This document shows positions 4,701 through 35,870 of a DNA stretch of 64,000 bases, piece after piece. Numbering within the stretch: the stretch's first letter is position 1; every line of letters starts with the position of its first letter. The position numbers and the translations under genes were made by a program. The stretch comes from Azolla caroliniana (lineage: Eukaryota; Plantae; Polypodiophyta). Under the pieces are notes generated by a model. The model was not told the DNA's origin. It did no database searches and saw nothing but the letters and a program-made list of their open reading frames with translations. The DNA is taken from positions 9,424,001 through 9,488,000 of the forward strand of contig JBHGNT010000002.1 in assembly GCA_043228905.1 (NCBI GenBank), read 5' to 3'.

Positions 4701-5320
4701 CGGAGGATCGTGCCCGCATTTTGGAAGAAGTACATCATGATTTATCCTTGGAGCTTAGTCTTGCTAATGAACGATACAAGAAGCAGGCTGATCGCCATCG
4801 ATCTTCCACTCCACACTTTGTCGTTGGAGACATGGTCTGGTTGTTACGTCGACACATCTCTACTACTCGTCCATGTGCGAAACTTGATTACAAGAAGTTG
4901 GGACCATTCCGTATCATCGAGTGCATCAATCCCGTCGCCTTCCGGCTCGCCCTTCCATCCCACTTCCGGATTCACGATGTTTTTCATGTCTCCCTCCTCG
5001 AACCCCATTATGCTTCACAACTCCCAGGACGTCAAGCCCCACCACCACCACCTGTGCAATTGACGACAGGGGAGGAATACGAGGTCGACCAAATCCTTGA
5101 CTCGCGTTGGCACCGTCGACACTTGCAATACCTCGTCCTATGGAGGGGTTACCCCATGTCTGAGGCCACATGGGAACCATCGGCAAATTTACAAAATGCC
5201 CCAGAGGTCGTCCAAGATTTTCATCACCGATATCCCCACAAACCAGCGGCCGATTTGGGAAGGCGGCGTAAGAGGGGGGATAATGTCAAGATTCGAACTC
5301 TTGACACGACCATGTTATAA
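1724..5320 (+). CDS. pol: Pol (PR-RT-RH-IN-chromodomain), in the -1 frame relative to gag
   Basis: LLDSGAS protease, YLDD RT, TDASDFAIG RNase H, HHCC and DRGPQF integrase, GPF motif, EYEVDQIL..WEP chromodomain. The frame is open from 1724 (stop at 1721-1723) and overlaps the end of gag. Confidence 0.95.
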   Translation, partial: RTPTSGKRHRSVAVGAMQLDISRRPHSLGSIAGPSGNFTLEVWLSFNSSSIQSVALLDSGASSCFIDVAFAQAHGVPVVGLSKPIPVEAIDGCVLSSGAITQATIPLGLRVGSHQEELTFYLIASPRHPIVLGLTWLEAHNPIVDWCNRSITFSKPRCSCKSMKVNSVSYPSETVDSELTTPSSVQDGFVCGAISNTLHVIPEKYQHFSDVFEKCNADRLPEHRLYDCPIDLQEGACPPFGPLYALSAPELKALRVYLDENLAKGFIQPSKSPAGAPILFVKKKDGSLRLCVDYRGLNKLTVRNRYPLPLIPELLDRLRVARVFSKVDLRGAYNLVRIKPGDEWKTAFRTRYGHFEYKVMPFGLTNAPAVFQHMMNDIFREYLDLFVVIYLDDILIFSPNMEEHTRQVRLVLAKLRKHGLYAKSEKCEFDRTSIEFLGYIISPTGITMDMKKVSVIQAWTTPRRLKDVQSFLGFANFYRRFIKGFSTLAQPLIALTHKGTPFLWTSEAQNAFDSLKHAFITAPVLLHADPTKPFQVETDASDFAIGAILSQADDNNLMHPVAYYSRKFTASEINYPIYDKELAAIIAAFEEWRPYLAGAQHRVQVVTDHKNLVYFSTTRTLNRRQARCSTFLADYDFEIVFRPGGQHGKADALSRRADLALRPGDVAYAQQSRRLLKPDQLHMFATCMLQDDSLLQQITDASKTDAFANEIRDSLQNPSKATKRKDLDTFTIQEGLLFRDHLLYVPEGPCRTRVLRECHDDPLAGHFGVAKTLELISRGYWWPQPWKLVKEYIKSCEVCARSKAIHHRPYGLLQPLPCPRRPWASISMDLITDLPLVNSYDSVLVVVDRFTKMAHFTPCSKTISGEGMVHLLLNNVVRLHGLPDDVISDRGPQFVSHFWQRLLQTLGISVKLSSAYHPQTDGQTERVNQILEQYLRCSVSYQQDDWVNLLSLAEFAYNNSLHASTGVTPFFANYGLHPRFNISLPTTSVNPSAEDRARILEEVHHDLSLELSLANERYKKQADRHRSSTPHFVVGDMVWLLRRHISTTRPCAKLDYKKLGPFRIIECINPVAFRLALPSHFRIHDVFHVSLLEPHYASQLPGRQAPPPPPVQLTTGEEYEVDQILDSRWHRRHLQYLVLWRGYPMSEATWEPSANLQNAPEVVQDFHHRYPHKPAADLGRRRKRGDNVKIRTLDTTML
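1739..1790 (+). promoter_or_regulatory. -1 ribosomal frameshift signal (G GAA AAC plus stem/pseudoknot)
   Basis: Heptamer 1739-1745 in the gag/pol overlap, 6-nt spacer, 11-bp stem GTTCGGTTGCA/TGCAACTGGAC (with G-U pairs), loop GGAG complementary to downstream CTCC. Confidence 0.75.
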
Positions 5321-8225
5321 TCTACTATTATGAGTTAACCAAGATATCTAGTACTAGTTATGTATGTAATTGGTCCTTATTATTTTGCTAGCATCATGTG
5401 CATAGTTGCTCCCTTGTAGTATTTACACTTGGCACATGCATGCATACCTACATGCTCTATTGTAGATTCACATGCGTGCAACAAGTGTGCATGCCATGTA
5501 GTATAAATAGAGGAGTTCACCTTGAAGGAATTCAAGGTGAACAACACCAGTTATGGAGTCTTTCCTTTAGTACTATCTTCTTTCTTGTCCATTTGGTTAT
5601 CTTCTTGGTTGTCTCTTGAGTTTATGATCCGTGACATCCTGGTGGTCCCTGAGCTGTAAGATAAGTGGGACAGTGGCTTCGGTTACTGCTCCCAAAGAAA
5701 GCATGCGTCCATCGATAGCATCCACTAGGATTGGCTTGGACAAACGGACAATCGGGAATTTGTGTTTACGAACAAACCTTTCGTCCGTAAGACACATTGT
5801 TGCCCCGGAATCTAGAAGTGTTATGGATCCAATTGAAATCAACTTGAAATGGATTCTTACCGGAAAGGAGAAATCTTCTGTCGATGTAGCCGAACTATGG
5901 GAGCGACACAAATGTGGATTGTCCAACCACATGGCTCCTACTATAGTTGGACACCATCGTTTTCCCGTTGTTTGGGCCGTCTTGTCATATTGTTTGTAGA
6001 TATTTGTCGTTGACTATTCTTGATTGGGCAAAAACGAATGAGATGGGTGGATGCACCACAATATAAACATAGTCCGTTGGCTCGGCGATACCTCCGTTCA
6101 CCCTCGGTGAGTAACGGGGTGCGAGCTCGATCAATTTCCATCAGCACGGGGTCATCATACGATGATGATGGAGAAGATCTCGAAGAGGTTTTCAACCTTG
6201 AAGTTGCTCGTTCCTCTTGATGAAGCTCAAACAACCGATTGTTACAACTAATTGCTTGCATGATGGCTTGCGACAATGACGTAGGCTCTGGAAAGTTGAG
6301 TAGTAAATTTTTAATCCCGCTTCGAAGGCCCCAAAGAAAATGGTGGCAGAGAGCTTGGCCATCCGACTGAACATCACATGTTAATTGTCTAAATTCATAG
6401 GCATAAATGGATATCGGACGCATACCTTGATGTAATGAATAGAGTTTGGTGATGGCAGTTCGGCGTCGGTCCGTATCCCTAAATGTTGCCTCAAACTCTG
6501 CTAGAAAGGCAGGAAAAGTTTGAAGAAGTGGTGATGAAGTTTCAACTAATGGTGCAAACTAGGCTTCTGCAACTCCGGACAGAAGGGTTCCGATGAGACC
6601 AACTTGACGAAAATCACCCGCATACCGTTGAGGCTGTAGTTGGATAATAAGCTTGATCTAATTTATGAACACTCGAAAGTGCTTCCTCGTGCCATTGAAC
6701 TTGTCAAGTAAACTAATATTGGGCTCCAAACTTGTAGTGGGATGGGAAGTAGTCAGAGAAAGCATAGACGAGGAACCAGGCTCTATAGGTTGAACATTTG
6801 TTGATGTAGGAGGAGAGTTGTTTTTTTCTTCGAGTTCTATTGGTGTTCCACCTTGAAGCTTCCGTAACGATTCCCGAAGGTTGTCATTCTCAAGTTGAAG
6901 TTGAAGCATGGCTTCCATGATGTGATTTATTCTCTCGATAAGATCCAACATATTGACGCTTAGAAAATGGGAAGGTGAGTAAACTGTCACGAACGAGTGG
7001 AATGAGGCTAAGTACTAAGACAGAGCGAGAGCATAAGTAAGATCACAAGATTGTCAAGGACAAGTAGACGAGGCTCAATATTAAGAGATAGCGGGAGAGA
7101 GAGCATTAGACAAGAGAACAAGCAAGAGAGACAATAGACAAATAAACAAGAACTGTATATGCTTTCGTAACTAGTGTTGTTCACCTTAATTGTAATCAAG
7201 GTGCACCCCAATATTTATACAAGAATGTGGAGCTATGCATGAAAGCTAGAAGACTTCTAGAGAGTGCATGGAATCTTCTAGAGAGTGCATGAAGATGCAT
7301 TCTCTAGAAGGTTCTTGAAAGTTCTAGTGATCAATCTATAATGAAATAAGTTGAGTCTTACACAATATAATAATGTATAGATTGATGTAGCTCAATTGGT
7401 AAGGTTACCCAATTGACACATTAGATAGTGGAATGATCTATATACCCAATTCGTATACATATTGGCACATTAGATAGTGGACTTATCTGCTCTATACAGG
7501 GTGTAGGGCTCTTCGTCAGAACTAGTAATAGGCTTGACTCGCGATTTGAAGGGTAGGGGGGGTTCTTTGTGTAGAAGCGGTATAACACTTAGTTTCATAC
7601 GTGATGTAGAAAACAAATCTAAAACCCATTGAAAATTTTGAAAAAAAATACAAAATCTTGGGTTTTCAACTGGAATCCAATGCAATGCACTAGATTCCAG
7701 TTGAAATCCAAGATTTTTTTTAATTTTGTAATTTAAAAAAAAATCCATAAAAAAATAAAAACTGGATTTTCAACTAAAATCCGATGCACTACATTGTATT
7801 TTAGTCTATACAGGTAGAATCCAATGCAATGCATTAGATTAAAGTCGAAAATCCATTTTTCTTTTTTCTTTTATCAATGTATTTTTATTTATTTATTTCC
7901 ATATAAATAATAATAATAAATGGTTTTTCAACTAAAATCTGATGCACTACATCGGATTATAGTCTATATAGCTAGACATTGATGTAGTGCATCGGATTTT
8001 AGCTGACAATCCTTTTTCTTTTCAATTGTTTTTCATCTTTTTGACAAATAAATAAAAATATTTTAAAAAATGGATTTTTGATGCAGTGCACAAACTTCGA
8101 TGCACTACATTAGATTTCAATTAAAAATCCAAATTTCTTTTAGGTTTTTTATAAAACAATGAAAAAAAAAATTTGCATTTTCAAAGGAACTCTGATGCAC
8201 TACATGTGTTTAATATAGTAATGTA

Positions 8226-13460: not shown

Positions 13461-13705
13461 TTGATAAATTCTATAAATTCGATTTTGTAATTGTACATTT
13501 GAGAAATTACAAAATTTCCTCTTATTTAATTTCGAATCCCCCTTTTGACATAATTACATTTGTATCCCGAGTAGCATTAATCCTTCTAAAGATTGTATCT
13601 TGGGCTTTTGAACTCCAATTCACGAACCAAAAATTCCTACATTCTCCTTGTCATAAGATCTAGATGGGAAATGTACTTATATAGACTTTTAACATTGTTT
13701 TGACA
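13001..13705. mobile_element. Probable solo LTR (TGTCA..TGACA)
   Basis: Inverted TGTCA termini; flanks ACGT/TCGT (4-bp TSD with one mismatch); carries the same tRNA-like module as the LTRs at 17744 and 21419. Confidence 0.55.
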
Positions 13706-14318
13706 TCGTGAAGTGTTATCTTCACAACAACATACATGGCCGTAACCGGAGAAATGAAGAAACAACTCGGGAAGATGCAAGATGAGTGACATTCGGCATC
13801 AATCATAAAAGAAGACGAAAAAATCATGGGAGTAGTCAAAGAAGTGTTCTATGGTATTAATCCTTGGGCCGGACAACAGTCTAACACAGGGTGTCCACTC
13901 AAGACACTTCACCAAAGGGTGGTACGACAGAATGACTTACGGCACAACGCTTAATTAAACCTTAATTGGTTACTTCGCAATCCGTAATTAACACGCGTAA
14001 GATATAACAATGAATACAGAACGGTAATCAAAACTGGAATATTAAGACAATACGCTCTATTAATTATCCGCTCCTGATTACATTGTAACCGGGCCTTTAT
14101 ATAGGTCTCCGGTGCGAAATACAAAACGGTGCCAACCGGCACCTTTTCGGGATCGGTTTGGATCCGGATCGGCATACCGATTCTGGTCCATCCGTCCACA
14201 TCTTCTGATATATTACTATATATTTTAAGACTACTAATTACAACAGTTCCCGAATAAACTATTCCTTTTCACACTCTAGTTTGGACCTCCTTAAGCCTTC
14301 TTGCCCGTCGGTAACACA

Positions 14319-14357
14319 TGGCACGCCCGTGGGACAGTACCTTGTACGTCGAACCCA
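14319..14357 (+). promoter_or_regulatory. tRNA-Arg-type PBS with extended T-arm complementarity
   Basis: TGGCACGCCCGTGGGAC starts 2 nt after the LTR and resembles the Tat-type tRNA-Arg PBS TGGCACGCCCGGTGGGAC minus one base; TCGAACCCA at 14349-14357. Confidence 0.75.
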
Positions 14358-14370
14358 TTATCTAGCCCTT

Positions 14371-17138
14371 TTACGCTTCATCCAAAATGTCCAGAATGCT
14401 TTGCTCCAAAATTTCCAATGGCTCGTCAAGAATCTGTTGTTGCTGTTGTTCCGTTTGTGGCTGTGGCTGCTTCGTTTGTGCCTTCTTCGTTTGGGGTTGT
14501 GGCTCCGTTTGTTGCTCTGGCACCGGCGTTTCCTGCATTGGTTCCTCTGTCGGAGTTGTCTCTAGCTGACTGACCCCGGCTTGGTCCCCGTCTGGTCCTA
14601 GTACCAGCGACGGTTCCTCATCACTAAGGTTGACTGTTGCCGCCTTCCTCGCTTTTTCTTCCCGAAGTCGGCACCGCTCATAGCTTTCAAACTGGATTTG
14701 AGCCTCCAGCCGATCGTCGTCCAGTTGAGCTACGAGCTGCCAGACCTGTACCAATTGTTCATCCGCCAGGGCTATGAAATCTTCAGCCAGCTCATCCCTT
14801 ATGGCGGTGAAGTCCTCCGATGTCAGTGTATAATAGTCATCACCCTCCTTCGGCCGGTTTTCCACGTCCGCCCTGAGCAATTGGAGTTCCGCCGTATTCT
14901 ACGCCCATTTCGCCCACCAACGCACAGAGCTATCATCAATCAAGCTTTTGGTCTTAGTGAGCCATGACCGGAGGATGCACTGGATCCGTTCGGCTCCCAT
15001 CTGTGATTTTTTTTCTGCGGCTTGTTGCTCCTCTTTCAATTGCTTGATGATTCGGACCGTGTCCGCCTCCTGCTCCCTATAATGCGACAATTGATTTTGA
15101 TAGGTTGTTTGCAACCTCTATAATACCATTGTCGCTCTTTCCTTGTCTTCATGGTTCTGTTTGTGGAGCTCCATCCGGTCATTCGCCGCTTCCTCCAATA
15201 GCTTGGAACTCTCAACTCATTCTTCGGCGAGTGCCGTTGTGGCCCTATCAACTTCTTGCCGGAGCTCGGCCATCTGTTCCTGTTGTTGCTTATACTCCGT
15301 CTCCAGCTGCTTGTAGTCCCGATGCAGATGATCAAAATCATCAGTCTTCTGCTTCAGCCTCTGGTTGATCTGCCGGTGTGCGCAGTCCTCCCGGTCCTTC
15401 TGTTGACGGAGCTCTTCCTTCAGCCTCTCGATTTCCGTCTCCGCCATCCGTCGCAGCTTGTCTTTTTCCTACAGCAATTTCTCTTTTTCCTCCTTCAGCC
15501 GGTCGTAAGCATGATGTCCTTTACGCAGGTTTTCCTCTGCCCGGCGAAGGTTCTCAGCAGTCTTTTTTAATTCTTCTTCGGCCGACTTCTTCAAGTCGCA
15601 TTCGCGGCTCCGTAATGCTTCTTGTGCGGCAAGTTCATCTCGTAATTCCACAAGTTCTTCGGCTTGCGCCGCATCTTTCTCCGGGACAGTTTGTGTCTCC
15701 GGGGTCTTATTCCTCTGTACATCAACCTGAGTCACCGGTGCTTGGATCTGCGTTGCTGTTAAGGCCATTTTGGCCATGTCTCCTGTGATCCGATCCAAGT
15801 CTTGTTCGAGGCACCGGATCCTTGACCGGGTCGTCTCCAGTTCATCGGTTGTGATGATCAACCGTTCCGTTTGCGCTCTTTCTTCCACCTCTATGCATTC
15901 GACTACTCCGGCAATTTGTTCTCCTATCCACCGGAGCCATTGGCTGCCGGTGCATTATTGTTGCGCTTGCACGGAGAGTTGGCTGATGGGTTCACTCGCC
16001 GGTGGCTGGTCCCACCTTCTTGCGTCGAGTTGTGCTTCCGGTGACCACTTTGCCGTTCTGGCTCTGAGTGTGTTTCGGCTAGCCGCCCCTTGTCTGCTTG
16101 TTCTTGGCCGGTTGGGACGGTTGGTCTTTGTATATCCGGCTCTTGAGTTACAGAGCTTGCCGGTGCTGCCTGTTGTGCCGGGACTTCTGTGACCGTTTCC
16201 CGTACCTCCCTTGGCGTGGGATGCTCAGCGTGAGTTGCGGGCGTTCCATCCTTCTGTGGGTCCGAACGCTTCCCGGCTGATTCAACGGTGCTCTTCACCG
16301 GCCGCCGCTGGAGGTGCTCCGTGGGTTCTTCCTCCATTTCTTCCGCCTGAGCCCCGACATTCATTCTTGCTGCTAGGGTGTCCGTTTCCTGTTGCACCGG
16401 TCGGTGGAGTGGGCTCTTCAGGGGTCAGGCCGGTGTCTCCTCACTTGCATCCGTCGGCCGCTTCCGGCTGGCGCGCTCTTTTGCCGCCTTCTCTGCGTCG
16501 GCCGTCTTCCCTTTAGTGGCCTTGGAGGCCAATAGTTGTTGCGGTTTCGAAGCAGGTTTTGGGGTGCCGTCTGTTGCTCTTCCCCGCTTCTTGGTTTGGA
16601 CGGGCTCAACCAGTGGCGCCAACAGGGTGAGCCATTGTGTCACCGCATGCCATATTTTCCAGCCTTCCTTGCCGTCCTTTCCTCTTACTATATCAATGGT
16701 CGTACACAACCCATCGGCGATCAGCACTGGCCAATCTACCTTGACCCCTTCGTACGTTGTGATGATCAAGCCTGCTCGGTTCTGAGGCATGACGGGGGGT
16801 TGAGGGTACACGTGGCCGAACTCATGGAGCACACGGGCAATTTCGCGGAATAGCATATCTTCGCCGCCCTGTGTCCTGTAGCCCTTGCTAGCTAGAGAGT
16901 AGTCACCGAAATATTTGATGAGTTGCTCGGAGGTAGGATTGTCGATCGTGTAGATGCCTCCCTCCGGAAGGCCTATTAACGCACGGATCGCCTCCTCCGT
17001 GATCACCTTTGTGTCGATTTCTTTGATGATCTTTTCGGCCTCCTTGTGTGGCCCCGCCTCCATGATCGTTAAGAAACCCTCCAGTCCGTGTTGTCGTAGC
17101 CATTTCTTGGCGGCTTCAGACAGTGTTTGGCAGTCCAT
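14371..17138 (-). pseudogene. Disrupted ~900-aa accessory ORF: plant-transposon/PMD-like N-terminal domain, low-complexity linker, long coiled coil, acidic Q/P/E tail
   Basis: Collinear ORF pieces 17390-16425 and 16397-15924 in one frame; 15888-15469, 15447-15217, 15114-14899 and 14880-14371 in a second frame. Motifs ITEEAIRALIGLPEGG and GVKVDWPVLIADGL resemble retrotransposon extra-ORF domains. Confidence 0.7.
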
Positions 17139-17743
17139 CTCTGTGTCGCGGTCGGAGAGCGTTGGCGAGGTTTGGTGGTGGGGAGAGTGTGAGAGAGAAA
17201 GTTCTGAGGGAGGGGGTTCTCTGTGTGCGAGCTCTCTGCGATTAATCTTCACGCGTCTGTCTGCGTCTGTTCTCCTTGGTTCGCGATAGGAGAAGGTCTC
17301 GATGCGTGGGGGTTTTTCTCTCTGCATCTTGGCGCCTTTTTCGATCCTCCGCGTGCGCAGGTCATGTACTATAATAGCATTGTGTGCCATGTGGCGGTGG
17401 TTTCATGTCCTATTCATAGCCCCTCGTACCTTTTTTACGTGCCTCTTTACTCCTCGTTTGCATGGCCGTTTCCACCACTCCTTTCCATGATTTATTTGAT
17501 TCACTCCTTTATTTTATTTATTTATTTATTTATTTATATTTTTTTGTTTTGTAAAGTAAATCGTGTGCTTAATTTTTCTCCGGTCCTGTCGCCAAAAACT
17601 GTGTTAATCCTAGGGCCGGACAACAGCCTAACACAGGGTGTCCACTCAAGACATTTCACCAAAGGGTGGTACGGCAGAATGACTTACGGCACAACGCTTA
17701 ATTAAACCTTAATTGGTTACTTAGCAATTCGTAATTAACACGT

Positions 17744-20700
17744 TGTCAGGGTAGTTGTGGTTTGTGCGGCGAAGTCGCAGGGACTAAGGTTAAGGGGGAG
17801 TTGAAGGAACTTTTAAAAGGCTTTGCACACAAATGTTAGGAAGATTAAGGATAAGAAGAATAAGAGTTTAAAGTAATGTATGAGAGAGAGACGAGCATAG
17901 ATAAAAGATAGAGAGAATGTATGATTTAAGAAGGAAGAGTATAAGATATGAACATGATTTATATTAAGAGAACAAGTTTTTACCAACATTACAATGCTTT
18001 ATAACAAGATGAACCCTTTCTCTACCAAATCTTGATTTGAACCCTTGACTCGAACTTGGAAACACGAGCCTCTTCACCAACAGGCTAACTTGTTTATTTC
18101 ATTAACTATGTTCTAACTTTCTCTTGATTGATTCCATTACCCTGTTTTCCCTTTCCCCTGTTTATATAAGTGTTGTCATGCATATGGTAATGTATGGGAG
18201 CATGGCATGCATGTAATGCATGAGTTACATGTAATGCATGATCGCCATTTGGCGCACATGCATTGCATGTGATGAATGATGGGTATGTATGAAAATAGAT
18301 ATGGGATAAGTATAATGATGAAAATGTATTCTAAAATAATTAACCTAGCTTAGTGGTGTATGCTTGGTGCTTGGTATACAAGGTTGAGGGTTCAAGTTCC
18401 TCAATTTTACTTAATACAATATATAGCTTCATTCTTATATCATGAAGCACATTTATTACACACTTTTACAAATAAATAGCCTAGCCTAGTGGTATGTACA
18501 TTGTACATCGTATATAAGGATGTGGGTTCAAGTCTCTCAAATATTATTAAATACAACATTTAAGCTCATTTTTATATCATGAAGCACATTCTTCACGACA
18601 CCCACCCCCTCTGAACTTGCACATTGGTTGTGCAAAGTTCATCCAACACTTCTTCTGATTCTTTTAATTCTTCTACTTCTTCATAAAATTCAGGCTCTAA
18701 TGACTCCCTCCTTTTAAATATTTTAATCCTTTTTCCTGCAATTGGGATACGAATTTCTGTCCCATCTAATTCATTGAGGAAATATGTGGCTTTATCTGTC
18801 ATTTTCCAAACTTCATAAGGTCCAAACCATCTTTTTGAAAACTTCCGAATAGTACTGTATTGATTATCTAGGCTATTATCATATACTAATACCCAATCTC
18901 CCTCTTGCACCTTTCTTGGTCGTATTCTTTTCATCTTGTCAAATCTGTCCTTATTCTTGATTCTTGCCTCTTTCAATCTAGTAGCTGCTTTTTCTATGTC
19001 TTCTATCCTGGATTGAAGTTGTCGTATTCGAACCGCAAGTAAATCTTCCCTACTCATTTCCGATTCCCAAGGCAACACAGCCCATGTAGTTATCTTTTCT
19101 TCAATTGGCATTATTGGCTTCTGTCCTGTGATTAATTCTGCAGGCATATATCCAATAACAGTGTTGTGAGTTGTCCTATCAGCCCATAGTGCATAGGGTA
19201 AGGTTTTTGGCCAATCACTGACCCGTCCTCTACATGCCTTTGCCAAAGCTTTGACTATTGGCCCATGTCCCCTTTCTACCTTTCCATTAGCTTCTGGATT
19301 GTACGTCGTTGTCAAAGAAAGCCGAATTCCTATTTTGTCGAAAAAATCTTGAGCTTCCGTAGAATTTAGTTCTCCCCTATCTGCCACTATCTTCCCGATA
19401 CATCCATATCTACAAACAATGCCCTCCAAGATAAATTGACATACTCCTAATGTCCCTTTTCTTCGGAATGAATGGCCTTCCACTTGATTTGTTAGATCTT
19501 CTCTAGCAAGAACCAAGTATCTCTTTTGTCCTACTCCAAGTGGCATTGATACCAAATCTATCATCCACTTGTAATGCACCCCCGGTGAGTATGTTGGGTG
19601 TAATTCATCACAAAATTTTACGTTTGAATAATATTGATAAGTGGGACAAGTTTCCGCATACTTTTTTATTTCCTCATAGTATCGAGGCCACCAAAATCAT
19701 TCTTTAATCTTACTGAAAGTGGCCCACACTCCTCGATGACCAGCCCATTCTTTGTCATGCAACTCTCTGATAATCTCCTTTCTTTGCCCTTCAGAACCTA
19801 TTACTCTTTGCGGGTTTCCAGTCTTGGTTTTCGGATGTCGCCATAGATATCCTTCATGCATGAAGAACTTATGGGCTTTCTTGCGAAACTATGTGAACTC
19901 TTTTCCAGATCGACCTTTGTACTTGTCAGGGGTTTGTAGGTATTTACCTATTTCCTTGAATTCTTCTTCATACTCCTCTTCTAGAAACTGCATTCCTCCT
20001 TCCCGGGTAATGCTTGTGGTAAGGACTGTTTGTTCTTTGTCCTCATCGTTCGAGTCTGGAATCTCCTCTTCCTCATACCTTGCTCTTGATAACATATCTG
20101 CTACTACATTTCTATTCCCAGAGATATGTCGAACTTCAGGGTTGACTGATCTAATATAGATACACCATCTTAACATGGCTTGATCTGGAATATCACAATT
20201 AGCTATGATACCAAGAATAGGCAAACAATCTGTTTCTACTATTACTTCAGCACCAATTAAGTAATCTCTGTTTGTCTTTACTACTGTTACTATCCCCCAT
20301 AGCTCTCTTTTCACCTGTGCATATTTTCTTTGTCGATCACTAAAAACCTTTGCTCCGAATCGGACTGGATACCTTTCTTCCCCATCTTGTTGGCTTATCA
20401 CCCATCCAATTCCAATGGGACTAGAGTCTACTGTGAGATATATGGGTCGGGTGTAGCCAGGTTGCTTTAATGGTGGAGCTTGTGCTAAGTAGTACTTCAA
20501 TTTCTTCATTGCCTCTGAATGCTCTTCACTCCATTCAAATATCTCTCCTTTTCTTAGGAGTCTATATAAAGGTTCAGATAAATGGGCATAATGCGGAATG
20601 CATTTACAGTAAAAAACACATACCCCCAGAAACCTTCGTACTTCTGAGACGGATGTACATTCCTCTTGCATATTTTGAATTGCATTAACCTTGGTTGGGG

Positions 20701-21563
20701 ATGGCTTTCTCCCGTATGGGCCACACATATGGCCAACTATTAATATCTCTTTTGCCCCAAATATTGACTTCACCCCTGATAAGGTCAAATGCACTTCTTC
20801 CATCCTTGATAGCACCTTCTCACAATCCTTGATATGATCAGCAACAAATTGATGGCAACCACTTTCGTCCAATTCCTCGTTCTTCTCTTCCTCCTTGCAT
20901 CCCTTAATTGGAACATCATCTAGAAAAGGCATTGTAATATGAGGAATAAAATAACGAAGTACCTTGTTCATTCCATTCATCATATGCGCCACTGAGTTGG
21001 TCGCTCCTTGCGGCAAGGTGCACATCCGTACTAACCCTATTGGTGTCTTGATAGAAGTTATATCTCGACTTTTGATAGCAAGTTGAAATTGATCATACCC
21101 AGAATAAAGGTCTCCCATTGAATATATAGCTCTTCCTACAAACATCGCAACAAACTCATCCACAATTGGCCCTACTCCCGAGTTTCGGATTGTTACCTTA
21201 TTCATGGGTTGCATATCTTGGATAAATCGGAGTCGCCCATCTTTCTTTAACACAGTGAACCATCGACTCGAGTAAGGAGCGTTCGATGGTTTCAAGATAC
21301 CCATCCTTATCTTTTCTTTCAAAAGTTCTAATAGTTGAGGGATTCTAGCCCTAGGCATGGGTATTGGCTTAAAGTTCCATGGAATATGGTTGTTGGTGAA
21401 AAAAAAAAAAAACAAATGTGTCGGGGTAGTTGTGGTTCGTGCGGCGAAGTCGCAGGGACTAAGGTTAAGGGGAGTTAAAGAAACTTAACTTTTAATAAGG
21501 CTTGTATGGTGATGATAGAATGGTTAAGGATAGTAAGACGAAGAGTTACGAGTAATGTGTGTA

Positions 21564-21596
<33 letters not shown>

Positions 21597-22203
21597 CGAG
21601 CATAGATAAAAGATAGAGACAATGTATGATTCAAGAAAGAAGATTGAGACAAAATATGATTCAAAGAACAAGAGTATATGATATAAACATGATGTATATT
21701 AAAAATATAATATTTTACCAACTTTACAATACTGACCCTTGATTTGAACCCACGACTTCCACTTTGAAACGTGAGGCTCTTCACTGAATAAGATATCTTC
21801 AATACTTGCTTAAATTCTTTTCTCCCACTATCTCTTGATTGATTGATTGCCCTCTTTTCCCTTGATTCATCCCTTAATTCCTTACCTCTCTTTATAGGTT
21901 CTCTCATGCATATGATGATATGGGGGTGCATGGCATGCATGTAATGCATGTGATGCATGATCGCCATTTGGCGCACATGCTTTACATGTGATGCATGATA
22001 GCCATCATGCTCATCTAAGCTCTAATGTATGAAGATACACATGTCATAAGTATGGTGATAAAAGTATAACTATAGAAAATAACTTATCCTAATGGTATAT
22101 GCTTCGTCCTTGGTGTGTGAGGTTACGGGTTCATGTCTCTCAAATGTTACTTAATACAATATTCAAGTTTATTTTTATATCGTGAAGCAAATCCTTCACG
22201 ACA
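17744..22203 (-). mobile_element. Internally deleted non-chromoviral Gypsy element nested in an LTR
   Basis: LTRs 17744-18599 and 21419-22203; PPT AGAGGGGGTGGG on minus at 18600-18611; 4-bp TSD ACGT/ACGC; PBS, gag and PR missing at the poly-A junction 21399-21412. Confidence 0.88.
18593..21400 (-). pseudogene. pol: Gypsy pol RT-RH-IN (Phygy/fungal-like type), disrupted
   Basis: GDLYSGYDQ, LPQGATNSVAH, PFLDD, VDSSPIGIGW, IVADRGEL, WFGPY. Confidence 0.9.
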
Positions 22204-22532
22204 ACGCGTAAGATATAACAATGAATACAGAACGGTAATCAAAATTGGAAGATTAAGACAATAAGCTCTATTAATTATCCACTCCTGATTACATTGTAAC
22301 TGGGCCTTTATATAGGTCTCCGGTGCGAAATACAAAACGGTGCCAACCGGCACCTTTTCGGGATCGGTCCAGATCCGGATCGGCATACCGATTCCGGTCC
22401 GTCCGTCCACATCTTCTCATATATTACTATATATTTTAAGACTACTAATTACAACAGTTCCCGAATAAACTATTCCTTTTCACACTTTGGTTTGGACCTC
22501 CTTAAGCCTTCTTGCCCACCGGTAACATATGG

Positions 22533-24205
22533 AAGCACGCTACAACGGCTTGAAGAGCTTGCAGAAGAGATTAGCCAAGGAGACTGAGATGTACAAGATC
22601 ATTGCGGAAATGGGGCCGAATGTGCTTGGCAAAGAAGAAGCAATGGTATGTACGAAATACAAGACATTGGGAAAAGAAGGTGAAACCTTCTATGGGACCG
22701 TTACCTGCCAATAGTGAACAAAAGACGAAAGTAGTCTTGGGAGATCCGACACTTTGAAGTTCCATGGATATCGGACATACCGAAAAGCATTCGCATTCAC
22801 ATCAAAAGAGATAGGGTGCATTGATCCAAAGATAGTGGAGGTGATGGTGATCTTCACGATTGAACATGTGACGTGGAACTTGAAGCCGATCAATGGTTTA
22901 TAGTTCCAAAGAAGAATGGGTCACTCCGGTTCGTTCAAGATTTGCAACCGGTGAGCAAGGTCACGATCCAGAACTCCAGAGATGGTCCGATAGTGGATGA
23001 ATTTGCGGAAGCATTTTCCGGATGCATGATATACTCCATCGGAGACTGATAGGGTTAGTTCGGATGTGTACGCTATCACAAGGAGCAATGAACTTGATCA
23101 CACATATGATGAATGCAATGAACAAGGTGCTTCAGGACTACATTCTGGAGATAACAATGTCGTTCCTAGATGACATTCCGATGAAAGGATGTGCGATGGA
23201 AGAAAAGGATGAGAATATGGATGATCGGGGATGTCGAAAGTTTGTAGTCGACCATATTCGCGACTGGGAGAAAGTGATATAGAAGTTACAAGATGTGCAC
23301 TTAACACTCTTTGGAGAGAAATCGACATTCGGACAAGAAGAGATACTGGTAGTAGGACATCTGTGTGGTCCCTACGGACAAAGACCATCACCAGTCAAGA
23401 TCAATGCGATTCAAGCCATGAAAGAAATATGAAAGTAGCAATCCAAGGTTCGTAGGTTCCTTTGGGCATGTGTGTTCTATCATATATGGATTCCACACTA
23501 TCCACACATTGCGGACCCACTCTATCACCTGTTGCGGAAGGGGAAGAAGTTCGAATGGAATCTGGAGCACATCAAAGCTATGAGGAAGCTGAAGGAAGCG
23601 CTACGGAGGGCAATTGCACTTAAGAAGCCGAACTATGACAAACGGTCATAGTAACGGTTGATACAAGTCCAACCGGGATTGGATGGGTCATCAACCAAGC
23701 CGACTCGGATGGTTCACGATATCCGATTTGATTTAGAGCAAAGTTTCTCAACGAAAGGCAATGAGGATATGCACAAGTTAAAAGACAATTATGGGGAGTC
23801 ATATCAGCAATAAAATCGGATCAGAATTATTTGATCTTAGCCGAAGTAGTGATCGAAACGAATTGGCTTCCGATACTCGGGATGATGCGATGTTGCATGA
23901 TACCGGATGTGTCTATGCTAAGATGGATTGCATATGTAAAGTCACTTAATCCGGACGTTTGACACATCTCAGGAAAAGACAACGTAGTAGCGGATATGTT
24001 ATCAAGGGTTCAGTTTGAAGATGACATAGTCGAATCGGATAATGAAGAAGTTTCCGAAGATTACTTTACTTCGGGGCACATATGCCGGGTAAACGTAATT
24101 CGGGAGTTCTGGGAAGACGAATACGAGGGAGAAAGCTTGCTAATTGGGAAAGTGCTACAAGAAATCAAGGAATCATCGGACAACAAAGAAAACAAAGCCG
24201 AGAAG
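22533..24205 (+). pseudogene. pol: Degenerate Gypsy pol RT-RH of the outer element, same family as 18593-21400
   Basis: LVRMCTLSQGAMN, SFLDDIPMKG, VDTSPTGIGW, with many stops and frameshifts. Confidence 0.85.
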
Positions 24206-26622: not shown

Positions 26623-28965
26623 TTTTTTAAATCACCTTTGAGGGAAATACCTCTCCCTTAAAGATGATTTAAAAGATTAGATTTTATTTCTGTGAAGCTA
26701 AGCATGTTGATGAAAGCCAAACCTGATTTAGGGGTGATCTTTTAGATAACCTTTGACGGAAATACCTTCATGACATTTATTTTTCGAAATACTAAACGAA
26801 AGTTGAATCTGGTTTATATGTCATTACTAGCAACCTACCCTCGAAGGTGACCTTTCACATTACAAACGGTTTCCTATACCATGTAGTGGAAATGTCTGTG
26901 TTCTAGATTTACCAAACTTGACACAAAACATTCTTCACGAATCTCATGATGCACCATCTACTAGTAATCATGGAATACAAAGAACACTCGTACTCATCGC
27001 AAGTACATTTTTTTGGCTTAAGATGCACTCTAACATACATAAATACATGACTTAATGCTTCAAATGTTAGGTTAACATGTTAGAATCACTTAAAGTTGTT
27101 TGTCATTTGCTAGTTTATCTTGTATATAGAGGGGTCATGATGTCATTTGGCTTGTCGTTGAGAGACTCATGAAATTGGCTAGATTTATTCCTACCAAAAT
27201 CATAGTAACCACTCAACAATTGGTTCATCAATTTGTTGATGAGTTATTTCTTTTTTATGGCTTACTGATGGATATGGCTTTTCTTGCTAGTTTATATCGT
27301 ATACAACGGGGTCACGATGTCATTTGGATTGTCATTGAGAGACTCATAATATTGGCAAGATTTATCCCTACTAAGACCACAGTAACCACTCAATAATTGG
27401 TTCATCAATTTGTTGATGAGTTATTTCTTTTTTATGGCTTGCCGATGGATATTGTTAATGATCGAGTTTCCAAGTTTTCTAGTGACTTTTGGACTCGGGT
27501 CTTTAAGAAACAAGAAACTAATTTGAGTAGGAGTTCCACAAATCATCCTTAGTATAATGGACAAACTGAACGAGTTAATCAAATTATTGTGGACATGCTT
27601 CAAGCTTATGTACCAAAAACCCCTTCTAAGTGGGAGTAATACCTTCCTATTTTAGAATCTACCTATAATAGCTCCAAATATACATCCATTGGATATAATT
27701 CTTTGATGTTGATGTATGGTTTTCAGCCACGTGCCCTAGTAGATGTCACAAATTATTGTGATACATTAGGCAATACATGAAATTATTTCCAAGACATGAA
27801 CCAAATTTTGCATATTGTAAAGGAAAGTGTTAAGACAACTCAAGATCATGCTAATTTGAGTAGACATCCTCATCCATTTACTATTGGTCAAAACATTTAC
27901 TGTGTGCACCTACTGACTCTACGTCATTGTCTATGGCCAAGTGTGCTAAGTGAGCGCCATGATATTCTGGCCCCTTTTAATTTCTTAAACGGGTTGGATC
28001 ATCTTGCCTGACCCCACAACGTTGTTATTCCTCTTATTTTTCACGTTAGTCATTTAAAACCATTTTTACGGTCTCGTGATAATGCCATGATCGTGAAGGA
28101 TCTTGTAACATAAGAGGATTTTTCTTACATACGTCCTCATGTTGTTGAACAAATTCTTGTTTCTCATACTACACTTTTACGTTCTAAAGACATTCGGATA
28201 TTTAAGATCAAATGCATGGATAAACCTATTGTTGAGAATCGAACTCAACTTCCCATAGATAGGCTTCACACTAGCTCATGGACATACCAAGCTAGTTTTG
28301 TAAATAGTAGAAAGGGCACTTTCCCTAGCTCAGTTGGTATTTAAACCAACCCCTTGTAACTTAGTTATTGTTGGACGTTTTATGTTTTGATGTATTTTAG
28401 GTTAATACACAGTTTAGTTTTTCGATCTCTGTCTCAAGAGCTCTCTCTCTCTCTCTCCCTTTGTTGCCACACACACACTCTCTCTCTCTTAATAATCTTC
28501 CGCTACATTGCAATCACTGTTGCCTTCATTTTGTTGCATGGTATCAGAGTGTGTGGTTGCTTGATCAAGCATTTCCGACTTTGTTGTGTTGCATGCCGAC
28601 GATCAACAGAACCGGCCCATCGACAGAGAAGAAATCACCATGAATACTCAAATGGGAAGCGCTCTTCCTACCAGGAAGCTCGACAGAACGAACTTTGCAT
28701 CTTGGGAATACAAAGATGCATCAATACCTTGTCGGACAAGGCTACTAGAGCTACATCAAAGGAGTTCACAAATCACACCCCAACCCAACACACGCCAACT
28801 ATCCCTCTTGGGAGCAAGCCGCAAGCCGTGTGTTGTATTGCCTCGCATCATGCGTTCATGATCATATGCTTGGCTACGTTCGAGAGGCTAAAACGTTGAA
28901 GCAGGCGTGGGAAAACCTCAAGAAGATTTTCGCAGCCAATACGGCCGTACGAAAGCTCCAACTTC

Positions 28966-30200
28966 GACAAGAGCTGAACAATCTTCAACAAAGGGACATG
29001 TCAATCGACAACTACACCTTAAAGATCAAAGAGTTGTGTGATGCCCTTGGATCGATCAATGTTAGCATTGACGACGAAGAAATGGTGCAGATATGCCTTG
29101 GTGGCTTGGCACCGCATTTTGGCGCAATAAGATCGGCCGTTCTCGCGAGAGAGAATCCTCCCTCCTTTTTTGATCTCCAATCATTGTTGCTAGTTGAAGA
29201 GAATCACATGCGTCAAAGGAACAACGCGCATGACGGACAAATGCTATGTTCGAGCTTTGATGGAGGAAGAGGACAAAGTCGCGGGACAAGAGCTGAACAA
29301 TCTTCAACAAAGGGACATGTCAATCGACAACTACACCTTAAAGATCAAAGAGTTGTGTGATGCCCTTGGATCGATCAATGTTAGCATTGACGACGAAGAA
29401 ATGGTGCAGATATGCCTTGGTGGCTTGGCACCGCATTTTGGCGCAATAAGATCGGCCGTTCTCGCGAGAGAGAATCCTCCCTCCTTTTTTGATCTCCAAT
29501 CATTGTTGCTAGTTGAAGAGAATCACATGCGTCAAAGGAACAACGCGCATGACGGACAAATGCTATGTTCGAGCTTTGATGGAGGAAGAGGACAAAGTCG
29601 CGGGACAAGAGCTGAACAATCTTCAACAAAGGGACATGTCAATCGACAACTACACCTTAAAGATCAAAGAGTTGTGTGATGCCCTTGGATCGATCAATGT
29701 TAGCATTGACGACGAAGAAATGGTGCAGATATGCCTTGGTGGCTTGGCACCGCATTTTGGCGCAATAAGATCTCCAATCATTGTTGCTAGTTGAAGAGAA
29801 TCACATGCGTCAAAGGAACAACGCACATGACGGACAAATGCTATGTTCGAGCTTTGATGGAGGAAGAGGACAAAGTCGCGGGACAAGAGCTGAACAATCT
29901 TCAACAAAGGGACATGTCAATCGACAACTACACCTTAAAGATCAAAGAGTTGTGTGATGCCCTTGGATCGATCAATGTTAGCATTGACGACGAAGAAATG
30001 GTGCAGATATGCCTTGGTGGCTTGGCACCGCATTTTGGCGCAATAAGATCGGCCGTTCTCGCGAGAGAGAATCCTCCCTCCTTTTTTGATCTCCAATCAT
30101 TGTTGCTAGTTGAAGAGAATCACATGCGTCAAAGGAACAACGCGCATGACGGACAAATGCTATGTTCGAGCTTTGATGGAGGAAGAGGACAAAGTCGCGG
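28966..30200 (+). repeat. Four-copy tandem amplification of a 319-bp gag segment
   Basis: Units start at about 28966, 29285, 29604 (278 bp, 41-bp deletion) and 29882; ORF track repeats with periods 319/278/319. Confidence 0.95.
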
Positions 30201-30981
30201 AAGGAGAGGTCGATTTGGCCAAGGCCGACATAACCAAGAGCGTAACTCCCACCAATGGCAAGCGGATAGAAACGGCCCCTGAGAGTTCGGCGGAAGGGGG
30301 AGTCATCACGCCGGACCAAGCAACCTTAGGAACCCAGTTGACTGCGGGTACTGCGGAAAACCCAGCCACTACGAAGAGCAGTGTCGGAAGAAGAAGCGTG
30401 AGCAAGTCCGACAACTAACAAATTACGCCACGAACTCCGACTACGGAGACCGCGGCGGAATGTTCATAATGAAGCACGAAGCGCACTCAATGTCCGCACT
30501 TGTGTCAACTACCGCTTCCACTCCGAACAACATATGGTTTGTCGATTTGGGAGCATCCAATCACATGACATCCCATGAAGATTGGTTTCGGGAACTAAGG
30601 AAGCCCGAACTTCCTGGATATGTCGAAACTGGAGATGACACGACACACCCCATATAGCATATTGGGAACGTCCCATTCGGAAACGACGGCAAACAAACCT
30701 ACCTCAAGAACGTGTTGCATGTCCCCACCATTACGAAAAACCTGGTCTCAGTCGGCTAGATTGTTGAACAAGGAATGCAAGTATGCTTCAATAATGACGG
30801 ATGCTTCATCGAAAAAGGCGATCAAGTCATAGCTCACGGCCGACGAGAAGGCCATATGTTCATCCTTGAATCGAGCGAGGTAAAGTCGGCCATGTATGCA
30901 AAGGGCCAGAAAGTCGAAACCGACTTGAAACTGTGGCACAAGAGAATCGGCCACATCAATCTCCAGAAGCTCTAGAATATG

Positions 30982-31384
30982 TGTTGAGTGACAAGCTCAA
31001 CATTGAGTGCGCAATACGGTACGTAACCTAGTGCGTAGATAGGGTGCGTAAAACAGTACGCATAACGTGGCCATATCGGTGCATAAACCGGAAGGCCGTT
31101 AGTATGGTATTCCTCGTAAGGAATAATTTTGGGAGTAGTGTAGTAGGCTCATTTATGAGCATTCACGTGATGTCAGTACTTGTGTTAGCCCGATAGTCAA
31201 GGCTTGTATAAAAGTGGTCACTGAGCACATCCTATGTACAGATTGAGTATTATTTTGAATTGAGTTTTCAGTGTGTCTTCTCTCTCTCTGTGTCTCTCCC
31301 GCGTACTGTGTATATTCAAGCTCTCCATTAAACCTGCATTTCTGTGTTCAGTTTTCTACTTGCTTCCGCACGCTATTCTTTACA
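30982..31384 (+). mobile_element. Copia solo LTR
   Basis: TG..CA ends, perfect TSD ATATG (30977-30981 and 31385-31389); host reading frame resumes after it. Confidence 0.92.
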
Positions 31385-34300
31385 ATATGCAATCGAAAGG
31401 AGTTGTAATCGGACTCCCGAACTTTACGGTGAAGGAGATTACAAGCGTATGCGACGCATGTCAGTTCGGAAAGCAACGTCGTCACCCATTCCCTAAAGAG
31501 CGGAATGTGATCAAAGGAATCCTGGATGTCATACATTCACATGTGTGGGGACCAACCCAAACAGCAACATTCGGCGAACGCTGATACTATGTCACCTTCA
31601 TCGATGACTTCTCCAAGAACACCTACATCTATCTGATGAAGCAAAAGAGTGAAGTGTTCAAACACTTCCACACATTCAAGAATGAAGTCGAAAAAACTAC
31701 GGGTTGGCATGTACGCTGTCTTCGATCAGATGTAGGCAAAGAATATTTTTCGGATGAATTTACCATGTATCTCCGAAAAGAAGGAATCCGACGAGAGTTC
31801 TCGTGTCAACACACGCCTCAGAAAAACTATGCTTTTATGATGAAAGTAGCATCAGTACGGGAACCGGAAACGCTTTCCGAAGCCACAAAGGATGGGTCGA
31901 CGGGATGAATGAAGAGATGGAAGCTTTATGCAAAAATGAGACATGGGATCTCGTTCCTCTCCCCCCAAACAAGAAAGCGTTTGGTTGCAGATGGATATAC
32001 AAAGTAAAATACAATGCCGACGAATCCGTAAATCACTTCAAAGCATGACTCGTTGCGAAAGGCTACACGCAAACGCATGGCATAGACTACGAAGAAACCT
32101 TTGCCCTGGTGGCAAAGATGACAACAGTACGGAAAATAATTGCACTCGCCACAGTGAAGGGATGGCACCTCCACCAGATGGATGTGAAAAATGCTTTCCT
32201 CCAAGGAGAGTTAGAAGAAGAGATATACATGATACAACTACCCAGATTCGAATCGCATAAACATCCGCACGCCGTATGCCGACTCAAGAAGCCACTCTAC
32301 GGCCTGAAACAAGCACCACGTGCTTGACATTTGAAGATCACGCAGTATCTTCACCAAGTTGGATTTTGGATGTCAAAATCCGATACTTCTCTGTAGATCC
32401 GAAATGAGTCAGATAGCCCGATCATCATCATCTTATACGTGAATGACTTGGTCATCGGAGGAAAGGATCTCGCCGAGACCAACAAAGTCAAAACACTTCT
32501 CTCCGGCAAATTCGAAATGAAAGACCTGCACGAATTCCATTACTTCCTAGGCATTGAAGTAATTCGGACACCAATCGGGATAATGCTCTCACAACAGCAC
32601 TACATCCTCAACTTACTCTACAAGTTCGGAATGACCGAATGCAAGGCTTTGTCTAACCCTCTCGATCGTAACCTAAAGATTGATGCCACTTTCGGAACCG
32701 CTGAGAACGAGCCAACTTAGTATCGACAACTAATTGGTAGTTTGATCTATCTAACCATTACGCGACCCGACCTCAATTATTAGGTCGGCCTACTTAGCCA
32801 ATTCATGCAGAATCCGCGAAACTTTCACCTTGATTGTGCTAAAAGGATACTATGGTATGTCAGTACGACAATGGCTTACGACATCATGTATAAGTTGAAC
32901 ACGACTATTCGACTCAAAGGGTACACCGACGCGGACTAGGCAGGCTATAAAGCGGATAGGCGATCCACCTTCGGATTGGTCTTCTCCCTCGGCAGTGGAG
33001 CAATCTCTTGGAGCAGCAAGAAACAGCCGACAATCGCACTGTCGAGCAAGAAAGTCGAATATAGGGGCGTTGTAGTCGCCGCATGCGAAGCCGTATGGCT
33101 TAAACGCATACTAAAGGATCTCAGCGTTCCCATCAAGGATCCAATTCATCTCTACTGCGACAAAATGAGCAGTATCTACCTGGTGTGGAACCCCGTATTC
33201 CACGCACGGACGAAACATATCGAAGTGCATTACCACTTCATCCGCGAGCGCGTACAGGCCGACGAGATCAATCTACAACATACTAGTACGCACCTCCAAG
33301 TTGCTGATATATTTACGAAGGCCTTAGGAGTCGACAAGCTCGGGCAATTTGCATTGGACCTTGGTCTCACGACATCTACATTGCCGAGCTTGAGGGGGAG
33401 TACGCAACATACGCAACACGGATAGACTACGCAACATGCAATTAGAAGCGTAAAGCAAGCCAGAATCCGATTCCTTAAATCGAGGTACTCTAAAGACCGA
33501 AACAACTTTTTGACATATGGAAGTTGTGTTTGAAAGGGCGTGTTGAGAATCGAACCCAACTTCTCATAGATAGGCTTCACACTAGCTCATGGACATACTA
33601 GGCTAGTTTTGTAAATAGTAGAAAGGGCACTTGCCCTAGCTCAGTTGATATTTAAACCAACCCCTTGTAACTTAGTTACTGTTGGACGTTTTATGTTTTG
33701 ATGTATTTTTGGTTAATACACAGTTTAGTTTTTCCATCTCTGTCTCAAGAGCTCTCTCTCTCTCTCTCTCCCTTTGTTGGCACACACACTCAATCATCTT
33801 CCGTTGCATTGCAATCACTCTTGCCTTCATTTTGTTACACCTATTGATGATGCCACATTGGAACGCAAGCATACTCTTAAGGCACAATTTGCAATCTTTT
33901 CAAGCATGGGGGTATGTTATGCATACATAACGAAGGTGAGGGTAGGTCACTAATATTTACATAAGTGAAGGGTATGTTCACTAATGTTAGAAAGGGGCGA
34001 ATGTGATTGGATAGAACGAATGGTAGGTGCATGCACTATCATGATCATAACAACCAATGAATGGAGAGTGTTTTAGAAGGCAAATCTATTCAAGGGGTCT
34101 AGGTAGAGGTATAAGTATGAGGCCTAGCTACCCTCATAAAACACATTAGATTGGAAGGTCGTGGTCTTAAGACACCAGTGGTGCGGGCTAAGCTTTTTTC
34201 ACTATAATCATATTATCTCATCTTAGGTATTAGTCATCCTAATATCTATTGGTATGGGATGTTAGTATTTGATTGGATATTTCTTGATCATAGCTCTGGG

Positions 34301-34802: not shown

Positions 34803-35870
34803 TGGATGTGGACATGAGGAAGTTGGTTTTCTATTTTGTGATTAGGATGAGTGATGATGGTGTGGGGACTGAAGCAGATATTATGAGAAGGTGAGGATTT
34901 TTTTGAGTCATTTTTTGGTTGTCAGTACAGGATTTCTACGGTAAGTGGCGGAAATCATGAGATAATCGGAGATAGCAAGATGGTGGATGTGGACATGAGA
35001 AAGCTGGTTTTCTATTTTGTGATCAGGATGAGTGATGTTGGTGTTGGGGTTGAAGTAGATTACTATGAGAAGGTGAGGATTTTTTTGACTCATTTCCTGG
35101 CTATCAATACAGGATTTTAGCGGTAAGCGGCTAAAATCTTGAGATAATCAGAGATAGCGAGATGGTGGAAGTCGACATGAGGAAGCTGGTTTTCTGTTTT
35201 GTGATCAGGATGAGGGATGTTGGTGTGGGGGTTGAAGTAGATTATTATAAGGGGAGGAACATCTTGACAGTACAGGATTTTCGTGGTAATAGGACAGATG
35301 GCACGATGGTCGACGAGATGCTGATTTAGACTGAATTAAGAAGATGTTATGGTTCTCATAGGATGAGTGATGATGGTGATGTGGATTGAAGTAGATTTTT
35401 CAGGACGAGAGGATCAGTGGTGATGGTGTGGGGGCTGAAGCAGATCATGAGGGGATGAGGAAGCATCCTATACTCATTTTGTTGTTATTTGCACAGGACT
35501 TTGGTGGTAAGTGGTGAGATGGTTGATGCGGACCGAAGGAAGTAGAATTTTGTTTGGTGATAAGGATGAGCGAAGATGTTGTGGGGTTCGAAGCATAAGA
35601 CCTCGGCGAGATGGTTGATGCAAACTGAAGGAAGTAGTTTGTCTGTGTTTTATGAGTGATGATGGTGGGGAAGGCTGAAGCAGATCATGAGGGGATGAGG
35701 AAACATACTAGGCTTATTTTGTTGTTATTTGTATAGGACCTTGGGGGTAAGCGGTGAGATGGTTGATGCGAACCAAAGGAAGTAGAATTTTGTTTGGTGA
35801 TAAGGATGAGCGAAGATGTTGTGGGGGTCGAAGCATATTTGTTTGAGGTGATGAGGACATAGATATTTTT
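34803..35870 (+). repeat. Diverged G-rich tandem repeat, ~180-240-bp units, about 5-6 copies
   Basis: Recurring GGATGAGTGATGATGGTGTGGGG..TGAAG(C/T)AGAT and GGTGGATGTGGACATGAG. Confidence 0.8.

Follow-up and report, generated by a model that had tools for sequence, protein, structure and literature searches.

The long terminal repeat (LTR) retrotransposon at 13855-22527 of a 64,000-nucleotide stretch of Azolla caroliniana DNA (contig JBHGNT010000002.1, positions 9,424,001 to 9,488,000; the window hereafter) belongs to a family without a polypurine tract (PPT). Comparison of its members suggests that this family likely primes its plus strand with the host tRNA-Arg(UCU), at a reversed site that is split by a hairpin and lies 2 bases ahead of the 3' LTR. 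An earlier reading of the window from its letters alone (the sequence-only reading) had proposed that a second tRNA, annealing to the cDNA, primes the plus strand. The comparison supports this proposal well, but the second site would be the one at 14319 and not, as had been assumed, the one at 17594.

A tRNA-matching site in the place of the polypurine tract

The element is read along the minus strand of the window, with its 3' LTR at 13855-14316. Comparison of loci defined a 2-base spacer (14317-14318, minus strand) between this LTR and the segment 14319-14358, in which about 27 bases, interrupted by a hairpin, are complementary to tRNA-Arg(UCU) on the plus strand of the window, the strand that corresponds to the minus-strand cDNA. 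The rice tRNA list, a proxy duplex and alignment divided the segment on the plus strand as follows. Positions 14319-14335 are complementary to the last 18 bases of the tRNA, CCA included, with one tRNA base bulged, and 14349-14358 are complementary, in the same tRNA, to the T-loop and the 5' strand of the T-stem; the 13 bases between them (14336-14348) are an insertion that forms a hairpin of 4-5 pairs with a 3-base loop, as assessed from folding and covariation. Read by eye against the rice genes in the supplement of PMC5492330, as far as that supplement displays them, the site equals the 3' end of tRNA-Arg(UCU) plus CCA, save for one missing base and the 13-base insertion; the CCA, absent from the rice gene sequences used, was added for the comparison.

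A 10-mer of the site occurred once in the window. The hairpin adjoins tRNA position 58 in our numbering, where 1-methyladenosine (m1A) is usual. Neither the window nor any of 9 element loci yielded a tRNA prediction with ARAGORN, and an Rfam search of 13800-17800 returned one chance match (E 1.4). The site pattern had no match in viral or prokaryote genome contigs; when the hairpin was left out of the pattern, one of the two matches in viral contigs was a tRNA-Arg(TCT) gene, and this tRNA was used as the proxy in the duplex predictions.

Relatives were collected with the N-terminal part of the element's extra open reading frame (ORF) as query, which retrieved 43 unnamed proteins; 22 of these were aligned with the query, and the resulting alignment of 23 sequences led to 56 metagenome loci. 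The motif at the end of the extra ORF was present in 11 of the 56, of which L029 ends inside the site and the remaining 10 extend past it. All 10 carried the tRNA site, and in none of them was there a purine tract, the longest purine run being 4 throughout. Thus, the expectation of the sequence-only reading that the tRNA sites are conserved and a PPT is always absent was borne out at this end of the element. L027 also ends inside the tRNA site, and further copies were found in L019, L007 and a second place in L015. The spacer measured 2 bases in all 12 LTR-side sites, although its letters varied (CA, TT, CC); this count leaves out one 1-mismatch match in L004, which does not adjoin an LTR.

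Between the window and L022, the site was identical at 35 of 40 positions, compared with 37/63 and 38/69 for the 60-base flanks, and the extra ORFs of the window and L022 groups were 37% identical. In run X12, 44 contigs join the window sequence at 14313 and 55 leave it at 14357; therefore, many unlike flanks share just 14313-14357 with the window. The predicted duplexes with the proxy tRNA, in which the insertion protrudes as a looped-out hairpin, had energies of -52 to -58 kcal/mol for 8 of the 10 sites; the two others, which are decayed, gave -43 and -44 kcal/mol. Shuffled tails attained the duplex value in 0 of 200 trials for 9 of the 10 sites and in 3 of 200 for L015b. In the hairpin, 97.7% of 44 cells were paired, with two-sided changes at 2 of the 4 pairs, against 4-70% in slid controls.

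The claim that no PPT adjoins either LTR in either orientation agreed with our measurements. In the 40 bases before an LTR of the outer element, the longest purine run was 4 in the minus reading and 5 in the plus reading. The PPT that precedes the 3' LTR of Ty3/gypsy elements was therefore missing from the window copy, as from the 10 sister loci, whereas clear purine tracts were found in the element nested in its 5' LTR and in a chromovirus at 347-5583.

Autonomous members of the family

Autonomous partners such as the sequence-only reading had envisaged were found in L004 and L027, in which an LTR end, a 6-base spacer, the primer-binding site (PBS), a single gag-pol frame and the extra ORF follow one another in one sense throughout. 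The gag-pol frame has about 1,940 codons and encodes gag, a zinc knuckle, reverse transcriptase (RT), RNase H and integrase. Both loci show the order gag, protease, RT, RNase H, integrase, the protease being a weak match (E 0.013) detected in L027 only. Four other loci (L001, L002, L003 and L009) supply the opposite junction, with the extra ORF, the reversed tRNA site, 2 bases, the LTR and the PBS, and L001 continues into gag. The family order on the minus strand of the window is thus LTR, PBS, gag-pol, extra ORF, tRNA site, LTR, and the sense of the element was assigned to the minus strand because of the layout of these six loci. An arrangement in which the plus-strand site is the PBS and the ORF is antisense, as in Retand, was overturned by the same layout.

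Judged from these relatives, the window copy arose by deletion of gag-pol from a member of an autonomous Ty3/gypsy family of the non-chromovirus kind. It contains no gag-pol, and its internal region of 3.3 kb holds one broken minus-strand frame, the extra ORF (14371-17402, placed by alignment to relatives), with one frameshift and six stops in the part aligned with L001. In intact relatives, the extra ORF encodes 917-1,003 amino acids, with a long, coiled-coil-like C-terminal part. For the N-terminal domain, Atlas gave leads to Transposase_32 (0.86) and ATHILA (0.85), both below its 0.9 bar, and the domain is also PMD-like, again as a lead only. The extra ORFs of the window, L004 and L027 had no Pfam match, and a search of 1.8 billion entries returned 339 matches, all unnamed. 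Relatives of the extra ORF or of the partner pol were absent from the viral contigs.

Pfam (E 0.05) detected no chromodomain and no extra or archaeal-type RNase H in L004 and L027; the extra archaeal-type RNase H that marks Tat elements (Ogre, Retand, TatI-III) is thus missing. In an RT-RNase H tree, the partner fell into a well-supported non-chromovirus group (support 98) together with Athila-like seed-plant elements; within this group, it lay outside the seed-plant cluster, in a branch of unnamed, Riccia, Adiantum and Marchantia sequences. This was a quick tree of 54 rows with no curated references, from which P0287 was left out as too short. The closest named matches of the partner were about 50% identical.

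Two loci showed further peculiarities. L007 carries a second LTR family with the same 3' tRNA site (L007 1850-2430; also L015 2167-2242), and its opposite end shows a minus-strand frame without a Pfam match, together with a PBS-like stretch that, though decayed, matches tRNA-Arg(UCU) itself. L053, a locus of the same family, ends in TTTAGGG-type repeats, as in plant telomeres.

The minus-strand primer-binding site

The sequence-only reading had quoted two tRNA-like sites and taken the weaker one, at 17594, as the second primer site. Both read as quoted, but their roles are reversed; comparison with relatives identifies the weak match at 17594 as the ordinary minus-strand PBS of the family, and 14319 is the unusual site. 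An identical 13-base PBS follows the LTR in all six loci with an LTR-to-internal junction, and in all four runs there are contigs that diverge from the window at 17588 and continue with the same PBS bases. Read by eye against four rice genes in supplementary figure 1 of PMC5492330, these 13 bases show complementarity to rice tRNA-Arg(CCG) at its 3' end with CCA added.

In the window, the PBS after the 5' LTR is represented by 7 of the 13 bases (17588-17594, minus strand; relatives and rice tRNA list), separated from the LTR by an AT-rich 7-base spacer (17595-17601, minus strand), which measures 6-7 bases in relatives. The deletion junction lies directly after these 7 bases, and the match is weak in the window because the gag-pol deletion cut the PBS at this point. 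The bases beyond show a weak likeness to the last pol codons and then to the A-rich leader of the extra ORF. The limit that the sequence-only reading had set to its match, TGGCGAC, was correct, as only the first 7 bases fit rice tRNA-Arg. Its longer site, 17578-17594, was conserved in part; the 7-base start is kept, extends to 13 bases in relatives and fits a tRNA, but the full 17 bases fit no rice tRNA end and were rejected as a match. Since the 7-mer TGGCGAC occurs 9 times in the window on both strands, the 17594 site is insignificant by itself, and its reality rests on the relatives. The window copy has kept the 40-base 3' site whole while its PBS was cut to 7 bases.

According to the passages of PMC5371799 that bear on this point, the PBS of Ty1 and Ty3 is not re-copied from the tRNA; therefore, a shortened 7-base PBS can be inherited. 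The conserved bulge in the 3' site had been considered as proof that this site is never copied from a tRNA, and this argument was dropped, as the PBS of Ty1 and Ty3 is not inherited from the tRNA either. Over the deletion junction (17555-17594), run X1 had a summed contig depth of about 5,000, X2 of 500, X14 of 26 and X12 of 0, and no other letters were listed. These depths hint at, but do not count, a recurrence of the truncated form in two organisms; no listed piece is shown to bridge the junction by 31 letters per side.

Proposed priming of both strands by tRNAs

In the cycle that we propose, tRNA-Arg(CCG) would prime the minus strand at the PBS, and the proteins would be supplied in trans from an autonomous copy, as in a standard cycle. 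After strand transfer, the minus-strand cDNA would copy the 3' site, and RNase H would clear the RNA. The cDNA would then expose about 27 bases to tRNA-Arg(UCU), with 17 pairs to its last 18 bases, the looped-out hairpin at the T-loop and 9-11 more pairs in the T-arm. An ordinary 18-base PBS would stop at the point where the hairpin stands, and the additional 9-11 pairs would assist in opening the T-arm. RT would extend the CCA end of the tRNA over the 2-base spacer into U3, RNase H would remove the tRNA, and integrase would trim 2 bases at the U3-side end and 6-7 at the other. We lean, with some reserve, towards a wider picture in which a plant LTR lineage has dropped the PPT and two different intact host tRNAs prime the two strands, the second docked on single-stranded cDNA via a three-way junction around the T-loop, while short derivatives spread with a 7-base PBS.

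Several points weigh against priming by tRNA-Arg(UCU). The host tRNAs were represented by a rice tRNA and a viral-contig tRNA, and RNA:RNA energies were used for what would be an RNA:DNA hybrid. The pair count of the hairpin was reached by 37 of 500 shuffles, and its covariation rests on about three lineage-level changes, with relatedness inflating the statistic. The loci are not independent, as L001-L003 are near identical and most come from one assembly series; moreover, L001-L003 and L009 are probably collapsed repeat assemblies rather than single genomic copies. In RNA sense the site folds on itself (-9 to -21 kcal/mol), and two family variants lengthen the internal stem at the cost of tRNA pairing, one with an extra base (L001/L009/L015) and one with a lost pair (L019/L021/L022/L026). 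Finally, the extra ORF of L007, 84% like that of the window, starts right behind the tRNA site and reads away from the LTR; L007 may be a rearranged copy, another architecture or a misassembly.

The self-folding bears on a possible, though distinctly less probable, explanation, namely that the element's own tRNA-Arg(UCU)-like RNA survives RNase H, is cleaved behind the CCA and then acts as an atypical PPT in starting the plus strand, with no second tRNA involved. The position, the spacer and the missing purine tract would be the same, the T-arm-like stem in RNA sense, capped by the hairpin, reaches -21 kcal/mol and is lengthened in the family variants, and an unusual primer is conceivable given that Ty3 RT fits its own PPT specifically (PMC5371799, in the part seen). 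However, such a primer must pair with the cDNA in competition with its self-folding, and no acceptor 5' strand lies upstream to complete a tRNA fold, in line with the ARAGORN result. The near-invariant acceptor-end letters across families whose extra ORFs are 37% alike, which pairing with a host tRNA needs, would have no clear reason in cis. We regard it as improbable that the site serves a purpose other than priming (holding a tRNA for packaging, dimer formation or strand transfer, or pausing RT) while a leftover of non-purine RNA, or another place, provides the plus-strand start. The extended, split tRNA contacts of Ty1 and Ty3 do serve initiation and dimer formation, as excerpts of PMC5371799 describe, but in the genomic RNA the present site is identical, not complementary, to the tRNA and so cannot hold one in particle RNA. 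Its CCA end, moreover, faces U3 at a constant distance of 2 bases, exactly the place that a primer end has to occupy for the observed LTR start, and no other primer candidate was seen.

The sequence-only reading had offered replication from either transcript as its second option, with sense and antisense RNAs packaged and each site acting in turn as an ordinary PBS. The layout is symmetric at first sight, and in L007 the site is followed by the extra ORF in the other direction; nevertheless, gag-pol, the extra ORF and the TATA box share a single direction, which makes two-way replication very unlikely, and because a plus-strand primer would still be required in each direction, the idea reduces to priming by a second tRNA. 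Hardly any more credible, and already largely refuted, is a relic or promoter, in which an inverted PBS or a piece of a tRNA or short interspersed element (SINE) was acquired on one occasion and has since persisted passively or been retained as an RNA polymerase III B box. The tRNA-derived pieces in Helenus LTRs are likely promoters of this kind (PMC10886601, available part), but here the site is conserved far above both flanks, with paired changes in the hairpin and a fixed spacer; the insertion falls inside the B-box region, there is no A box part, the CCA is included and the site lies outside the LTR, and Helenus keeps its PPT.

If priming of the plus strand by tRNA-Arg(UCU) is true, the family would be a natural exception to the rule of PPT priming, with plus-strand initiation independent of RNase H sparing an RNA. 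It would allow a direct test of the requirements of RT and RNase H in starting the second strand and in defining LTR ends, and would give host tRNA fragments a second place at which they could block an element. Annotation tools whose scoring includes a PPT, or which assign the PBS to the better of the tRNA matches, would overlook a high-copy family or orient it wrongly, which is what befell the window copy.

Comparison with known systems

In Ty3, a tRNA primes the minus strand at the PBS and the plus-strand primer lies just upstream of U3 (PMC5371799, relevant sections). The window family resembles Ty3 in the minus-strand tRNA at the PBS and in the position of the putative plus-strand primer just upstream of U3, and differs from it in having no purine tract. 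Split tRNA contacts that reach the T-arm are also known, from the small internal loop of Ty1 and the 5'-3' bipartite PBS of Ty3 (PMC5371799, same sections). The 3' half of the Ty3 PBS, however, binds the same primer tRNA on the RNA, whereas the 3' site of the window family has tRNA sense in the RNA, is complementary only in the cDNA and fits a different isoacceptor from the PBS; it is thus not a bipartite PBS of the Ty3 type.

With Athila and the OTA side of Ty3/gypsy, as portrayed in the parts seen of Neumann et al. 2019 (PMC6317226) and ATHILAfinder (10.64898/2026.03.20.713144), the family shares the absence of a chromodomain and of an extra RNase H, a sense extra ORF after pol, an AT-rich spacer before the PBS, a 5-base duplication and non-autonomous deletion derivatives. 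Brassicaceae ATHILA elements have a conserved PPT junction (97%) and a tRNA-Asp/Asn PBS, according to the portion of 10.64898/2026.03.20.713144 consulted. The window family has neither; its PBS fits tRNA-Arg(CCG), it has no PPT and it lies outside the seed-plant cluster. Going by sequence comparison, it is an OTA-side Ty3/gypsy family, Athila-like in build; it is not filed as Athila because the PPT junction and the Asp/Asn PBS are lacking and the tree is a quick one without curated references.

Helenus elements, which are TRIMs (miniature retrotransposons with terminal repeats), carry a tRNA-like piece inside the LTR that is likely an RNA polymerase III promoter, and they keep both PBS and PPT; the available part of PMC10886601 reports no priming role for the piece. 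The window element is likewise a non-autonomous LTR element with tRNA-derived sequence, but its site lies outside the LTR and it has no PPT, which sets it apart from Helenus and TRIMp3. In plant LTR elements, minus-strand primers fall into three recognised kinds, and the plus strand is described as PPT-primed throughout in the sources as far as they were accessible (PMC5371799 and PMC10886601 among them). A literature search by title and abstract start, which did not extend to most subscription journals and Repbase reports, found no precedent for a tRNA-primed plus strand. Motif searches of the literature gave unrelated papers only, and a term search of the PMC5389709 supplement gave nothing relevant. 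The site motifs were absent from the searched supplementary files of PMC6317226, beyond which the full element table may lie and could bear on novelty.

Structure of the outer element and its nested insert

The direct LTRs and the perfect TATGG duplication reported earlier hold in sequence and coordinates. The 5-base duplication flanks the element at 13850-13854 and 22528-22532, and contigs of three of four runs (X1, X2 and X5) contain the empty site without the insertion, inside a repeated host element. The 3' LTR (13855-14316, minus strand, 462 bases by sequence and LTR alignment) begins TA rather than TG in the window and finishes AACA; despite the TA start, the element has the direct LTRs and target-site duplication of Ty3/gypsy LTR retrotransposons. 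The 5' LTR (17602-22527, minus strand) is interrupted by a 4,460-base Ty3 insert at 17744-22203, which leaves an inner part at 17602-17743 and an outer part at 22204-22527, the bases 22204-22207 being the duplication of the insert. Aligned with the 3' LTR, the two parts are identical at 134 of 142 and 305 of 320 columns (439/462 in total, 95%). The TATA sequence described as readable both ways is present as TTTATATAGG at 14096-14105, but the canonical TATATAAA box exists only on the minus strand, at 14096-14103. The motif CCTATA[TA]AA was found in 3 of 4 relatives checked, in the same sense as on the minus strand of the window.

The nested insert (minus strand; alignment, Pfam and purine tract) is unrelated to the outer element and stands outside its machinery. 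It has a 4-base duplication (ACGT/ACGC), its own clear purine tract and RT-RNase H-integrase, and no gag. The description of the whole as lacking gag and pol is valid for the outer element alone, because the RT-RNase H-integrase frames at 18593-21484 within its span belong to this insert, which the sequence-only reading had not mentioned. The duplication is of the NCGN type, the preference reported for Phygy, and makes the insert Phygy-like. Its LTRs are 81% alike over ungapped columns (565/701; 68% by blastn), compared with 95% for the enclosing LTR pair. After one LTR come a T-run and then mid-pol, without gag or PBS, and the insert looks chimeric, composed of two families sharing one NCGN target. 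The flanks of the outer element (13500-13854 and 22533-24006) are an older repeated Ty3 pol, with 66% DNA identity to the nested one over 970 bases.

Other features of the window

The chromovirus at 347-5583 is young and intact-looking, with gag at 741-1766, pol with a chromodomain at 1724-5320 and an LTR stretch that is 100% identical. It has a normal purine tract, and no tRNA-type PBS was seen after its LTR; it is possibly self-priming in the manner of Tcn1. Inverted pairs and Pfam revealed two decayed copia-type elements in opposite orientation, at 27488-34263 and 40573-49429, which are 70-90% alike. Tandem arrays lie at 37478-38992 (period about 200 bases), 34844-35838 (about 182) and 28853-30208 (about 319). 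The reading frame at 58173-58688, which has a PPPDE peptidase domain (PF05903, E 9e-34), is probably an exon of a host gene.

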